From a virus (lineage: Duplodnaviria; Caudoviricetes): 58,277 nt of DNA. The stretch is taken from IMG/VR virus record IMGVR_UViG_3300037493_003821, positions 1-58,277 of that record. The stretch is one strand, 5' to 3'. The notes below the pieces were generated by a model. That model had not been told where the DNA came from. It searched no databases and saw only the letters and a program-made list of their open reading frames with translations. The position numbers and the translations under genes are program-made. How positions within the stretch are numbered: the first letter of the stretch is position 1; the number at the start of each line of letters is the position of its first letter. Shown here piece after piece: positions 19,657 to 24,320 of the stretch.

Positions 19657-20090
19657 ACGCACAACCCGAACTCGACTTCTCCGCCCCTGATCCCCGGCGC
19701 AGAACCCGCACGGATCAGATACTTGACGCATTTGCCAAGTTTCATTCAGATAACCCCGAAGTATGGGCATTATTCCAGCGGTTCGCGCTCAATGTCATAT
19801 CAAGCGGACGCGCCAACTATTCAGCAAACGCAATCTTTGAGCGGATCAGGTGGCACACCGAAATCGAAACCAACACCGCCGAAGTAAAACTAAGCAACAA
19901 CTTCCGCGCTTACTATGCGAGAATGTTCCACTTAGCGCATCCTTTGCATGATGGGTTTTTCCGCAACAGGAAGCTGCGTAGCGAGGAATCGGACGCAAGC
20001 GATACCGATGTGCAGGTATTCAACACCGAGCCTCCATCAGAGGAAGAAGCAATCAATAATAGACTCAAGGACATTTTAGAAAAGCTATGA
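19653..20090 (+). CDS. Conserved hypothetical phage protein
   Basis: FHSDNPEV...ERIRW...SNNFRAYYAR...GFFR; coupled ORF. Confidence 0.6.
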   Translation: MNAQPELDFSAPDPRRRTRTDQILDAFAKFHSDNPEVWALFQRFALNVISSGRANYSANAIFERIRWHTEIETNTAEVKLSNNFRAYYARMFHLAHPLHDGFFRNRKLRSEESDASDTDVQVFNTEPPSEEEAINNRLKDILEKL

Positions 20091-21388
20091 GCGACAAGAC
20101 CTACCTTCCCGACATCCACCGGATGCTCCCGCAATCCGAGGAAGCCGAAAAAGGGGTGCTATCGTGCTTGGTTCTATCGCCAAACGAGGTAGGCGCGATA
20201 TGCAGCAAAATGGGCATTGACGCGAAGCATTTCCTGATTCCCTCTCACTCCCTGCTGTTCAGAGCGGCAACTGCGCTATGGAAAGCTGGAAAACCACTAG
20301 ACTTCATCACCCTAACTCAATTCCTCCGCGACAAGGGTAAGCTGGATCAAGCGGGTGGGGCTGCTGCCGTATCTTCCCTGTTCACGTTCCTGCCGACTGC
20401 CGCTAACGCTGAATACTATCTCGGATTACTCACAGAAAAGGCGATTGCCCGCGCTTTGATTCATCTCGGCACAAAGTATGCCTCTAAAGCGTATGACGAG
20501 CAGGGTGGGGTTAATGCGCTCGCCGCTGAACTGCACAGGGAAGTCTGTGAACTGCTAGGACAGGGCAGGATCAAGGATCAGCCGATAAAGGAAGTGCTGA
20601 AAGAGATTTTGCAGGAGATAGCCAGCGGAAAGGAGGACGAATCGAATCTACCAACCTACATCCCGGCACTCGATCAGAACCTAAAGCTCTATCGCTCTGA
20701 CTTTGTAGCTATCAAGGGTGGAACGGGATCGGGTAAATCCTCTCTAGGGTCACAGATTATCGTTGAGACGGCTATCAGGGGTAGCAATAACCTGTTTTTC
20801 CCGTTGGAGATGAGCGCGAAGCAATGCCTTAAACGGGCGATCGCGGGCATCAGCGGTCACAACATGGAGGCTGCGCGGTTTCAGATGAAGGTTGCGCTTA
20901 GGACAGGCGATATGTCAGGGACGCAGGAGATGCAGAGGGATGTAGCTAATGCCGTGCAACAGCTTATATCGAGCAACCTGCGTATGCCGAAGTCGTGCCG
21001 CACACTCAACTCGATTATCGGGGAGTGCCGTAGCGCGAATGCAGAGAAGCAGCTTGATTTTGTCCTGATAGACTACATCCAGTTGCTTCATATCGAGGGC
21101 ACATTCTCATCCCGCCAACTCTCCATCGGTCACGCGACTCAGACGTTGAAGCGGCTGGCCGATGAACTCAAGTGCATCATCATCACCCCGTCTCAGGTGA
21201 ACAAGGATGGAGTCAGCAGGGAAGCAGCGGACATCGAGAACGACGCAAACAGTGTAATCGCCATTGACTACAACAAGGATGACGGGGAGCGCAAGATACG
21301 CATAGACAAGCAGCGCGAGGGTGCATCGGGTATCGAGATACCGCTGGAATGGAATGGGCCTTTAACCAAGTTTGAGCCTATAAAATAA
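20087..21388 (+). CDS. dnaB: Replicative DnaB-like helicase
   Basis: PQSEEAEKGVL N-domain, GTGSGKS, IDYIQL, SQVN, IENDA, KQREG. Confidence 0.92.
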   Translation: MSDKTYLPDIHRMLPQSEEAEKGVLSCLVLSPNEVGAICSKMGIDAKHFLIPSHSLLFRAATALWKAGKPLDFITLTQFLRDKGKLDQAGGAAAVSSLFTFLPTAANAEYYLGLLTEKAIARALIHLGTKYASKAYDEQGGVNALAAELHREVCELLGQGRIKDQPIKEVLKEILQEIASGKEDESNLPTYIPALDQNLKLYRSDFVAIKGGTGSGKSSLGSQIIVETAIRGSNNLFFPLEMSAKQCLKRAIAGISGHNMEAARFQMKVALRTGDMSGTQEMQRDVANAVQQLISSNLRMPKSCRTLNSIIGECRSANAEKQLDFVLIDYIQLLHIEGTFSSRQLSIGHATQTLKRLADELKCIIITPSQVNKDGVSREAADIENDANSVIAIDYNKDDGERKIRIDKQREGASGIEIPLEWNGPLTKFEPIK

Positions 21389-21651: not shown

Positions 21652-21809
21652 AAAGGAATTGGACGGAAATAATCTGCGATGGATGCGGTTGCGCTGAACA
21701 CTTTTCGCCTTCATGCTGGAAGCAATGCGCCCGCGAAATCGGATGGATAATAACCGCAAAAGGAAACCACTACTGCTCTAAGAAGTGTAAGAAACTTCCC
21801 CAAAAATGA
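21648..21809 (+). CDS. Small Cys-rich protein
   Basis: CDGCG...AREIGW...HYCSKKC. Confidence 0.55.
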   Translation: MKRNWTEIICDGCGCAEHFSPSCWKQCAREIGWIITAKGNHYCSKKCKKLPQK

Positions 21810-22345
21810 ACATCAAGTTTTCAAGAGAATGGGAAATGCCGTCGCATGATACACTGAGTATTCATCCGATTACGTGCTTTGCGATGCGCTACTTGCACGG
21901 TAGCGGGGTTTCCGTTGATCCGTTTGCTCGCAACTCTAGGCTGGCGACATACAGAAACGACTTGAACCCTGATACTGCGGCTGAGTATCACATGGATGCT
22001 TTAGAGTTTCTGTCCATGTTGGATGGGCGCGGCGTTAAGGCTGATGTAGTTATTTTTGATCCGCCTTATAGCTCAAGGCAAGTCGCGGAATGCTACGCGC
22101 AGGTTGGCAGGAAAACCACGCAAGAGGATACACAAGGCAAAAGCTGGAAGGATTGGAAGGCGGCTATCGTTCCTATCTGTGCAGATGGTGCGGTTGTGCT
22201 TTCATTCGGTTGGAACACTAACGGGATGGGCAAGAAGCTGGGCTTTGAGATAATCGAGATAATGAATGTTGCACATGGCGGGGTGCATAACGACACTATC
22301 TGCGTTGCGGAACGGATGCTGCCGAAAGAACAGATACTTCTATGA
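21806..22345 (+). CDS. Small amino-(adenine) DNA methyltransferase-like protein
   Basis: VDPFA (motif I), NDLNP, IFDPPYS (motif IV). Confidence 0.75.
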   Translation: MNIKFSREWEMPSHDTLSIHPITCFAMRYLHGSGVSVDPFARNSRLATYRNDLNPDTAAEYHMDALEFLSMLDGRGVKADVVIFDPPYSSRQVAECYAQVGRKTTQEDTQGKSWKDWKAAIVPICADGAVVLSFGWNTNGMGKKLGFEIIEIMNVAHGGVHNDTICVAERMLPKEQILL

Positions 22346-22719
22346 ACCCGCACACGATTAAACGCTTATTCCCAAACGCCTCTGCATCACTGATACAAGC
22401 CAACCTACAAGACTATGGACAAGCTCACACTGAAAATCCCCGGACGACTGCCAAGCCTAAATGCTCTATTGGGAATGAATCACTGGAGAAGGGCAAAGGA
22501 GAAAAAGCGGTATCTGGAAGAGTTCATTTCTGCATTATTTCTGTCAGAAAACGCCTTATCGATCCCGATAATCTTGTGCCGAAGTTCTACATTGACGCTT
22601 GCCGACGCTTGCGCCTTGTTGCGGGAGATGAGCACGACAAAATCACGCTCGAAACCGCGCAAAGGAAAGCGGCGAAAGGCGAAGCGGAATACACTGAAAT
22701 AACCATAACATATCCATGA
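22342..22719 (+). CDS. RusA-like resolvase catalytic (C-terminal) part
   Basis: RKRLIDPDNLVPKFYID...GD...EITI matches the RusA DxDN..K...D...D pattern. Confidence 0.65.
   Translation: MNPHTIKRLFPNASASLIQANLQDYGQAHTENPRTTAKPKCSIGNESLEKGKGEKAVSGRVHFCIISVRKRLIDPDNLVPKFYIDACRRLRLVAGDEHDKITLETAQRKAAKGEAEYTEITITYP
22415..22702 (+). CDS. Nested alternative-frame ORF carrying a RusA-like N-terminal part
   Basis: LTLKIPGRLPSLN...HWRRAKEKK resembles the RusA beta1-PSxN-helix1. Confidence 0.5.
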   Translation: MDKLTLKIPGRLPSLNALLGMNHWRRAKEKKRYLEEFISALFLSENALSIPIILCRSSTLTLADACALLREMSTTKSRSKPRKGKRRKAKRNTLK

Positions 22720-23069
22720 AATACACTATAACCAAATCATTCCGCTTTGAAGCGGCTCACTCACTCCCGCATCTGCCGGAAACTCATCAATGTCACCGAT
22801 GCCACGGGCACAGCTACGAAGTCATTATCGGAGTAACCGGGGCGATTGTGAATGAGTGGGTGCAGGATTATGCCGATATATCTGGCATGGTTAAGCCTCT
22901 GATTGACTCGCTCGACCATCGCAACATCAACGACATCCTGCCGTGCGCTACGACGGCGGAAAATCTCGCTTTGTGGCTATGGGAAAAGCTCAAGCCCGTT
23001 CTGCCTCTGTTATCGCTCATCGAAGTAAGGGAAACGCCAACATCCAATGTCATTCTGACCAATGAATAA
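22716..23069 (+). CDS. queD: 6-carboxytetrahydropterin synthase
   Basis: FEAAH, CxxxHGHSY, LDH, TAENLA, VRET. Confidence 0.93.
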   Translation: MKYTITKSFRFEAAHSLPHLPETHQCHRCHGHSYEVIIGVTGAIVNEWVQDYADISGMVKPLIDSLDHRNINDILPCATTAENLALWLWEKLKPVLPLLSLIEVRETPTSNVILTNE

Positions 23070-23688
23070 TCATCAACCGAGAACGCCAGATAGATACATT
23101 CACCTGTTCAGTGGTGGGTTGGATTCCACCGTTTTGCTCTACGACATCATTGCTCGCGGAGATACGGTGGAGTGCCTGCTATTCAACTACAACCAGCGGC
23201 ACGCCAAGGAACTCGACTTCGCACAGGCTACTTGCGTTAAGCTAGGCGTGAAATACAGCGTGCTTAGACTTCCGCATCAGCTATTCACGCGATCCGCGCT
23301 TGCCGGACGCGCATTGAAGGTGGATGAACTCAGCGGAAGCTCAACGGTTGTCCCTAACCGCAATATGGTCTTTATCAGCATGGCGACAAGCTATGCGCTA
23401 TCCACTGGCGCGAATATGGTATCGTGGGCCGTCAATTCAGACGATTCCAAGGTTTATCCAGACTGCCGCCTTGCGTTCTATAATCAGATACGGTTCGCAA
23501 TCGAGAAGTGCGATAATACCTTAGTCCTGCTACGCGCACCATTTTTGTCGAAAACTAAAGCGGAAGTTGTCGCTTTAGGTAAAACCCTTGGCGTGCCATT
23601 CGATGAAACGTGGTCGTGCTACGCCGGAAACGACACGCCTTGCGGTGAGTGCGGGGCGTGTAAGGTAAGAGAAACCGCAATGCTATGA
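23062..23688 (+). CDS. queC: 7-cyano-7-deazaguanine synthase
   Basis: SGGLDS, VPNRN, YPDCR, TWSCY..PCGECGAC. Confidence 0.95.
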   Translation: MNNHQPRTPDRYIHLFSGGLDSTVLLYDIIARGDTVECLLFNYNQRHAKELDFAQATCVKLGVKYSVLRLPHQLFTRSALAGRALKVDELSGSSTVVPNRNMVFISMATSYALSTGANMVSWAVNSDDSKVYPDCRLAFYNQIRFAIEKCDNTLVLLRAPFLSKTKAEVVALGKTLGVPFDETWSCYAGNDTPCGECGACKVRETAML

Positions 23689-24320
23689 TCGTGATGCCTG
23701 CGGACAACAACAATATGTATTGTGGATTTCTCGCCGGGAAATACGAGGGGCGTATTGCGTGGTTGATGACCGCTCATCGCAAGTGGAAAAATCCTAAGTG
23801 GTGGATGGATTGGGCGTTAGATAACGGGGCGTTTCCGGCATGGGAAAACAAGACGCCTTTTGATTTCGATAAGTTCTATTCGACACTTGAAGAATCCCGA
23901 AGGGTTAAGCGTCCGCGATGGGTTGTCGTGCCTGACTGCGTAGCGAATAGAGCGGAAACGCTAAGGCTATGGGGCGAACACGCATCAAGGGTCGCCGAGT
24001 ATGGATACCCGTTGGCTTTCGTAGCGCAAGACGGCATGACTCCTGACGATATACCGAGCAATGCCGATGTCGTGTTTATTGGCGGGACAACGCATTGGAA
24101 GTGGACTAACTTAAAAGCCTTCACATCCTCATTTCCGAGAATCCACGTTGGCAGGGTTGGCAGCGAAAGGATGCTCTGGATGGCGCATGAAGCTGGCGCG
24201 GAGTCCTGCGATTCTAGCGGCTGGTTCCGAGAAGGCGATAATCTCAACAGGGTTGGCGGGCTGGTCAATTATCTGGAAGAATCTACAAATGGAAAAAGGC
24301 AGCAACTACTACAACTATGA
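23685..24320 (+). CDS. Compact TGT-fold DpdA-like DNA-guanine transglycosylase
   Basis: WALDNGAF, VVPD, FIGG, HVGRV, SCDSSGW; directly after queC. Confidence 0.7.
   Translation: MIVMPADNNNMYCGFLAGKYEGRIAWLMTAHRKWKNPKWWMDWALDNGAFPAWENKTPFDFDKFYSTLEESRRVKRPRWVVVPDCVANRAETLRLWGEHASRVAEYGYPLAFVAQDGMTPDDIPSNADVVFIGGTTHWKWTNLKAFTSSFPRIHVGRVGSERMLWMAHEAGAESCDSSGWFREGDNLNRVGGLVNYLEESTNGKRQQLLQL

Follow-up and report, generated by a model that had tools for sequence, protein, structure and literature searches.

How can a single enzyme domain be encoded if its conserved elements lie in two different reading frames of the same DNA? This question is raised by a locus in a phage of the Caudoviricetes (IMG/VR record IMGVR_UViG_3300037493_003821), whose complete 58,277-bp genome with direct terminal repeats is the stretch analysed here and is called the window throughout. 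Two open reading frames (ORFs) share the locus: a longer one, "main" (22342..22719), and a shorter one nested in it, "alt" (22415..22702), the frame of which lies one base downstream of that of main, main being in the -1 frame relative to alt. The ATG of alt is found 73 nt into main. Alt begins with MDKLTLKIPGRLPSLNALLGMNHWRRAKEKKRYLEEFISAL, and main carries the motif RKRLIDPDN..K..D...GD. At both ends main is joined to its neighbours by an ATGA overlap, its start with the stop of the upstream ORF 21806..22345 (at 22342-22345) and its stop with the start of the downstream ORF 22716..23069 (at 22716-22719). A sequence-only reading of this DNA had seen in the two frames a RusA-like resolvase, made either as two chains from a dual-coding locus or by a programmed frameshift; the ORF positions, the peptides, both ATGA overlaps and the heptamer G_AAA_AAG at 22501-22507 on which it was built are all present in the sequence. 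Our analysis supports this pair of options and favours the former. The locus is a real, deeply conserved dual-coding locus, in which two frames are open and under selection; judging from homology and modelling, it most likely specifies a RusA-like resolvase split in two chains. That the nested overlapping genes jointly encode one RusA-like Holliday-junction resolvase as two polypeptides is an explanation that we hold to be probable, if only by a modest measure.

How deep is the conservation of the nested layout? Together with the window, 80 related viral loci represent 60 distinct DNA versions of the region, which fall into 15 clades at 80% DNA identity. In all 60 the +1 frame is open over at least 101 codons from stop to stop, an alt-frame ATG precedes the first strand, and the alt frame ends 11-59 nt before the main stop. 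Both frames are open in four of four loci from metagenome-assembled genomes (MAGs) as well, assigned to Verrucomicrobiaceae, Planctomycetales, Actinomycetes and Candidatus Poriferihabitaceae. The last of these (L087:2041-2376), located on an 865-kb contig and probably within a prophage, is the most distant relative found (33% identity); it is the one MAG locus of the four in which the alt stop lies beyond the main stop, by 22 nt, and its F.SAL motif reads FVSLS.

Homologues of main numbered 64 in a word-indexed search, mostly 125 aa long and alignable end to end, and 537 in a profile search. A single-sequence query with alt yielded one match only in the word-indexed search; an exhaustive profile search of a representative library returned 428 alt-type representatives at E<=1e-3, of which 212 reach E<=1e-10. 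Each of the best 150 of the 428 matches covers the alt profile mostly or fully, which implies that gene callers have often chosen the alt frame; the main frame, too, has been called as a gene many times. In one relative the called protein is larger (P0173, 249 aa): the alt frame runs on from a long upstream ORF containing FPCQDIS, which we take to be a motif typical of C5 cytosine methyltransferases, and to judge from the sequence the alt piece may have been called as the tail of the preceding gene. Among 50,697 cultured phage records, blastn of 21800-23100 gave no match, tblastn of alt gave none at E<=10, and tblastn of main gave a single weak match, to the RusA of Caulobacter phage S2B (E 0.6).

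Which frame is selected where? Nei-Gojobori proportions of non-synonymous and synonymous differences (pN/pS) were computed for the 91 pairs of 14 clade representatives; clade L027 was excluded because it has a one-codon insertion. Alt is the constrained frame over 22451-22537 (pN/pS 0.42, against 1.14 for main), and main is the constrained one over 22546-22662 (0.44, against 1.08 for alt). Column conservation across the 60 sequences follows the same division. From 22423 to 22537 alt columns are highly conserved (P13 0.97, N16 0.98, M21 0.97, H23 0.97, W24 1.00, R26 0.97, K30 1.00, F37 0.98, S39 0.92, A40 0.90, L41 0.98) and main is variable; from 22546 on main is conserved, at R69, K70, R71, L72, D74, D76, N77, K81, D85 and R88 and further along at D96, E104, T105, Q107, K109, E116, T118 and I120, and alt is variable. 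Around the point of exchange the same bases serve both proteins. Main R60 (22519-22521) is 0.97 conserved by way of AGA, CGA, CGT and CGC, and the alt residue there varies among E, D, V and A; alt S39 is kept by way of TCT, TCA and TCC, and the main residue on those bases varies among C, K and R. Given these codon patterns, 22516-22537 is therefore under protein-level selection in both frames. The sequence-only reading had placed RusA elements of both frames over about 22505-22545; this holds for 22516-22537 and is not borne out for the wider span. Within it, given the genetic code, the F-I-S codons of alt in part dictate the alternation of hydrophobic residues in main V61-H62-F63.

On what grounds can main be called RusA-like? 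With hhalign, residues 74-125 of main (alignment A3) pair with residues 85-138 of the RusA of phage S2B (Prob 89.5, E 2e-6, 54 columns, 37% identity), itself a bona fide member of the family (gp048c; PF05866, 72.3 bits). In a weak alignment with E. coli RusA (E 0.012), main D74, D76, N77, K81 and D96 fall on D70, D72, N73, K76 and D91; of these main residues, D74, D76, K81 and D96 do not vary in any of 20 clade representatives. The E. coli RusA study (PMC1636454) describes D70, D72, K76 and D90 as critical for cleavage, D91 as belonging to the cation site, and the monomer as a four-stranded mixed sheet with two flanking helices. Among 20 main relatives, 14 match phrog_34, "RusA-like Holliday junction resolvase" (best E 6.4e-8), and seven match the RusA-like phrog_1682. 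In the profile these matches are limited to the part from strand 2 to helix 2. They begin at the strand before RKRL, so the homology extends to this strand, whose presence is more than a consequence of the overlap. At the level of sequence comparison, then, the C-terminal half of main is homologous to RusA.

For the alt N-half the evidence is of another kind. Protein-atlas (language-model) features of alt 1-48 placed 18 of 30 named matches in a set with PF05866 in 13% of its members (score 0.93), a link that we treat as a lead only. The label "RusA-type" given to the locus by the sequence-only reading is thus backed by hhalign and PHROG for the C-terminal half of main; for the alt N-half it depends on the atlas lead and on the predicted complex described below, with no profile match.

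Do the two halves fit together? The AlphaFold 2 model of main (mean predicted local distance difference test, pLDDT, 68.7) consists of helices 3-9 and 15-20, a disordered region 21-60, strand 62-69, helix 78-89 and strands 102-109 and 117-123, with pLDDT below 50 at residues 44-58 of the linker. In this model the order of elements corresponds to RusA minus its first strand and helix. The locus has no RusA fold in one chain: of the core, three strands and one helix are present in main by itself, and no single frame holds all six elements. Alt alone is predicted as helices 15-20, 23-47 and 53-79 (pLDDT 70.5, and 83-89 in the block of helix 23-47), and its N-half is presumed to be the counterpart of RusA strand 1 and helix 1. 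The complex of main 56-125 with alt 1-48 was predicted from a 20-row alignment for each chain, with rows in the same locus order. Three runs gave interaction prediction scores from aligned errors (ipSAE) of 0.72, 0.70 and 0.69, against 0.02 for the best of three controls, with 82 contacts and a partner pLDDT of 84; the mark set for this tool is passed by 58 of 80 solved complexes and by 2 of 110 mismatched pairs. In the predicted complex the missing first strand and helix come only from the alt frame. Alt 4-10 runs antiparallel to main 116-122, and the two segments are encoded some 250 nt apart, so that this pairing signal could not have been created by the overlap. The predicted interface further involves residues 29, 30, 33, 34, 37, 38 and 41 of the alt helix and residues 65 and 67-70 of the main strand. 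Co-folding of the two chains, which had been proposed earlier as a check, thus came out well above control (ipSAE 0.70 versus 0.02 for the best control), and docking of alt on main is predicted.

How might the two products work together? We envision a scenario whereby main, translated from its own ATG, would supply a variable N-module, a disordered linker, strand 2, the RKRLxDxDN loop, helix 2 and strands 3 and 4, and alt, translated from its own ATG, would supply the missing strand 1 and helix 1, followed by a sequence-unconstrained tail with a basic end. The strand of the alt N-half would dock on the last strand of main and the alt helix would cover the main sheet and helix, so that a sheet of four strands and its two helices would be complete. 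If it behaves like RusA, this assembly would then dimerise and cut four-way junctions via D74, D76, K81 and D96. Separate initiation of alt, the stoichiometry of the heteromer and junction cleavage are what we infer from this scheme. Two products are the simplest account of all conserved features. Among relatives, at least three unrelated N-modules (MNPHTIRRLFPNAS..., M.LTPEIRRAMERKPVHR... and IPAGYVEVRKGVYERI...; alignments A1 and A3) precede the same linker and catalytic half, and such modules might tether the enzyme to different partners.

Why does alt remain open far beyond its conserved half? To estimate how often the 51-56 alt codons after ...SAL would be free of stops by chance, synonymous codons were resampled from the loci's own usage with the main protein fixed (55 of 60 sequences were matched by the anchor pattern). 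This probability ranges from 0.02 to 0.29 per sequence, with a mean of 0.10, and multiplies over the 15 clade representatives to 10^-15.5, a product to be read with the clades being largely, not fully, independent, as the four-fold-site identity between them (262/635 = 0.41) implies. Among segments taken from 188 other long ORFs of these loci, 162 of 1341 with 52 codons (12%) and 12 of 596 with 95 codons (2%) are free of stops in the +1 frame. The tail is without amino-acid constraint (pN/pS 1.08), which indicates that its presence is selected and not its sequence.

Table 1. Coordinates of the two ORFs, their parts and the neighbouring genes in the window
Feature	Coordinates	Strand	Remarks
main ORF, 125 aa	22342..22719	+	N-terminal module, unconstrained linker, RusA-like catalytic half
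alt ORF, 95 aa, nested in main	22415..22702	+	+1 frame of main
main N-terminal module, aa 1-24, MNPHTIKRLFPNAS...	22342..22413	+	upstream of the nested ORF; two short helices, block pLDDT ~80
main linker, aa 25-58	22414..22515	+	sequence-variable, predicted disordered; overprinted by conserved alt N-half
main catalytic half, aa 59-125	22516..22716	+	strand, RKRLxDxDN loop, helix, two strands
alt N-half, aa 1-45	22415..22549	+	strand LTLKIPG, PSLN..M.HW motif, helix to FISAL
alt tail, aa 46-95	22550..22699	+	stays open; no detectable amino-acid constraint; K/R-rich end
doubly selected stretch	22516..22537	+	bases shared by two conserved segments, main from G59-R60 on and alt F37-L41
G_AAA_AAG in alt register (alt K30-K31)	22501..22507	+	imperfect -1 slip site
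DnaB-type helicase	20087-21388		neighbour of the locus
QueD/PTPS	22716-23069		PF01242, E 1.6e-27; directly after the resolvase locus
QueC	23062-23688		PF06508, E 1.3e-53
211-aa ORF	23685-24320		after QueC; no Pfam match

Several observations weigh against a RusA-like enzyme made of two chains. The window's own main protein matches no Pfam or PHROG RusA at E<=10. PF05866 (gathering threshold 22.8 bits), against which the sequence-only reading had suggested searching each frame, matches neither window ORF at E<=10, none of 20 main relatives, none of 20 alt relatives and nothing in a six-frame search of the whole phage. With PHROG RusA-like profiles, one of the 20 alt relatives gave a match, at E 0.26; hhalign of alt against two single RusA proteins gave none. 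PDB sequence-profile searches with alignments A1 and A2, one of them for alt, did not return RusA, the only matches being weak chance ones to C3a and Sec66. As to structure, Foldseek found no match to the main model at E<=1e-3, and VIA-align placed RusA (1q8r_A) at rank 27 (Z 3.7, root-mean-square deviation 4.2 over 64 residues, model 58-125 on chain 52-117), with unrelated beta-alpha-beta-beta folds reaching Z 5.0. The predicted complex must be read with care as well: halves of a known fold tend to pass such a test by their likeness to solved structures, the test is blind to the difference between two chains and one fused chain, and alt 31-48 and main 56-73 share DNA, so some of the apparent coupling is possibly made by the overlap. 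Under a two-chain enzyme the openness of the alt tail, whose sequence is unconstrained, goes unexplained. Finally, no Shine-Dalgarno-like signal precedes the alt ATG. Shine-Dalgarno-like 4-mers are found ahead of 14 of 92 ORFs of at least 90 aa in the whole phage, where many genes are ATGA-coupled; the rarity of these signals renders their absence before alt uninformative.

Which other explanations might account for the locus? The layout could be an artefact, caused by an indel introduced in sequencing or assembly, or a sign of decay, in which case an ordinary RusA gene would have become a pseudogene through a recent frameshift. A split into two frames is the expected outcome of a one-base error or a recent mutation, and Pfam matches neither ORF. 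The two-frame layout is nevertheless kept in all 60 distinct sequences, across 15 clades, and in all four MAG loci, and purifying selection acts on each frame in its own half. Moreover, over 22200-22800 the Logan contigs of four runs, one of them possibly the source, show substitutions only, with zero inserted or deleted letters; this includes the contigs of three other runs, and a systematic error common to all assemblies is implausible because their sequences differ. The sequence-only reading, which had argued against simple decay and had named an indel error, a single contiguous ORF in relatives and a non-conserved alt frame as the facts that would refute its proposal, is upheld: independent assemblies differ by substitutions only, no relative has a contiguous ORF carrying the catalytic motif, and the 22415 frame is open and strongly conserved in 60 of 60. 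An artefact or decay we therefore hold to be extremely improbable. More weight is due to the notion that main and alt are two independent genes that happen to overlap, main being a nuclease that works without alt, by means of its own N-module or as a reduced RusA, and alt a separate small basic protein, for example a regulator or a DNA-binding factor, with a superficial resemblance to RusA. Overlapping viral gene pairs usually encode unrelated proteins, and this rule speaks for independence here, as do the lack of any RusA profile match for alt and its prediction, when modelled alone, as a helical hairpin (helices 23-47 and 53-79) with a basic tail. Yet main alone is without the RusA first strand and helix, and its residues 21-60 are predicted to be disordered; alt 4-10 is confidently predicted as a strand beside main 116-122 (ipSAE 0.70 against 0.02); the atlas lead for alt 1-48 points to RusA; and in all clades the conserved half of alt stops where that of main starts, as expected of the parts of one fold. 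On balance, we consider two independent genes rather unlikely.

A programmed -1 frameshift would have ribosomes start at the alt ATG, slip at K30-K31 (22501-22507) and continue in the main frame, which would yield one chain in which strand 1 and a truncated helix 1 precede strand 2 and the catalytic half, either as the active enzyme or as a third product, and perhaps in some clades only. Such slippage is suggested by G_AAA_AAG in the alt register in the window and, as a further point against two chains, by a perfect A_AAA_AAG or A_AAA_AAA at the same place and in the right register in 31 of 60 sequences; A_AAA_AAG is an efficient dnaX-type slip site in bacteria. Selection also moves from the alt to the main frame, as a frameshifted gene would show, and main-frame selection (G59, R60) starts just 3' of the heptamer. 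The perfect heptamer is limited, however, to four of 15 clades and missing in 11, with the site of the window being imperfect, and in nine clades the whole interval from the HW motif to RKRL contains no perfect heptamer. Slippage at K30-K31 would discard alt F37, S39, A40 and L41, which are 90-98% conserved via synonymous changes and belong to the predicted interface. Beyond the site, alt continues without a stop for about 64 codons in each of the 60 sequences, needlessly so for a frameshift gene. The RNA at 22508-22590 folds at -15.9 kcal/mol, compared with -13.9 +/- 2.65 for shuffled sequences (z -0.75; 39 of 200 shuffles are as stable), and no natural in-frame fusion with the catalytic motif occurs among 283 fetched proteins. 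The selection of 22516-22537 in both frames means that no single frameshift point puts both sets of residues in one chain. It is this dual selection, together with an alt frame open to near the main end, an alt ATG in 60 of 60 sequences, a perfect heptamer in four of 15 clades only and no standout downstream structure, that leads us to favour two chains and to regard a frameshift as an improbable alternative. A slip just after alt L41 (22538-22546) was considered and rejected; no slippery sequence is present there in any clade, and the product would be without the pre-RKRL strand that the RusA-like PHROG profile aligns. An alt frame open to near the end of main in all relatives is accounted for by neither slip. 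The probability left over from the two-chain, frameshift, independent-gene and artefact readings belongs to mechanisms outside those considered. One could imagine an undescribed recoding, to which we give very little credence, in which the ribosome reads alt to the end of helix 1 (~22537-22549) and resumes 20-35 bases upstream at main G59-R60 (22516), thereby reading the doubly selected stretch twice and restoring the RusA order of helix 1, loop and strand 2 in one polypeptide.

As a separate observation, one of the 283 fetched proteins is an in-frame fusion, the only one among them: P0064 (91 aa, from one 2409-nt contig; cf. L022:2987-3291) joins the alt N-half to the C-terminal 46 residues of main. 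The RKRL.D.DN catalytic loop is skipped, which suggests either a variant with a short deletion or a mistake in assembly.

How does the proposed two-chain resolvase compare with known systems? It resembles the RusA family (PF05866; phrog_34 and phrog_1682; 1Q8R) in that the C-terminal half of main aligns to the catalytic region with acidic and lysine residues kept, in that four strands and two helices, as described for RusA in PMC1636454, make up the predicted two-chain assembly, and in that the locus lies in a phage replication/recombination region beside a DnaB helicase. It departs from the family in that neither frame has a Pfam RusA match, in the window or in 20 relatives, in that the fold would not reside in one polypeptide, its first strand and helix being contributed by a nested +1-frame ORF, and in the extra N-module and linker of main and the 50-residue tail of alt. 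Lambda Rz/Rz1 is an embedded pair of interacting phage genes, the unrelated products of which have distinct folds and form the spanin. As in that pair, a larger ORF fully encloses a small one, which is in the +1 frame and has its own start, with both the nesting and the ATG found in 60 of 60 viral sequences and reciprocal pN/pS in the two frames, and binding between the partners is proposed here on the basis of the model. Unlike in Rz/Rz1, two halves of one ancient enzyme domain are proposed and 22 bases are selected in both frames. Finally, dnaX and the phage tail chaperone genes G/GT are programmed -1 frameshift genes. The locus shares with them an A-rich heptamer in the register of the upstream frame and a move of conservation to the -1 frame, but here 11 of 15 clades lack the heptamer, the RNA downstream is unremarkable in its folding energy, the upstream frame has no early stop past the site, and the downstream frame has a conserved start and an N-module.

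How might such an arrangement have come about? Conceivably, an ordinary RusA gene suffered a frame-breaking change close to where helix 1 gives way to strand 2, which would have left the two halves in different frames; a start codon further upstream in the frame of the catalytic half would then have restored its translation. The non-homologous part of each frame, the linker in main and the tail in alt, overprints the conserved half of the other. Viral overlapping genes usually comprise an old gene and one that arose recently by overprinting, the product of which is unrelated and often disordered; here, in contrast, each frame would carry half of one old enzyme fold. If the two-chain reading is true, its novelty would lie in a single ancient enzyme domain being split between two overlapping frames. 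If the chains do assemble, they would represent a natural split enzyme with its halves locked together by shared DNA, and a clean system in which to study the origin and upkeep of dual coding. A full-text literature search, which did not cover supplements, found no paper linking RusA to overlapping, embedded or frameshifted coding; the kind of enzyme is known, and its mode of encoding appears to be new. Gene callers give one frame per locus, and hundreds of such proteins are labelled "hypothetical", which implies that a recombination enzyme has been missed in many environmental phages, among them carriers of 7-deazaguanine pathway genes like the phage of the window.

The genes following the locus (Table 1) suggest a 7-deazaguanine DNA-modification module in this phage. 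Flanking genes are common to at most two of the 15 clades; contigs of three runs switch to one common different sequence right after 22720, and those of one run diverge before 22340/22357. Such rarely shared flanks and divergence at ORF boundaries indicate that the nested pair moves as a mosaic unit. The rarity of Shine-Dalgarno motifs, together with the matches to Verrucomicrobiaceae and Planctomycetales MAGs, hints at a host relying little on Shine-Dalgarno pairing. The upstream ORF that is ATGA-coupled to main (21806-22345, 179 aa) has no Pfam match and contains FDPPY, presumably the motif IV signature of N6-adenine/N4-cytosine DNA methyltransferases.

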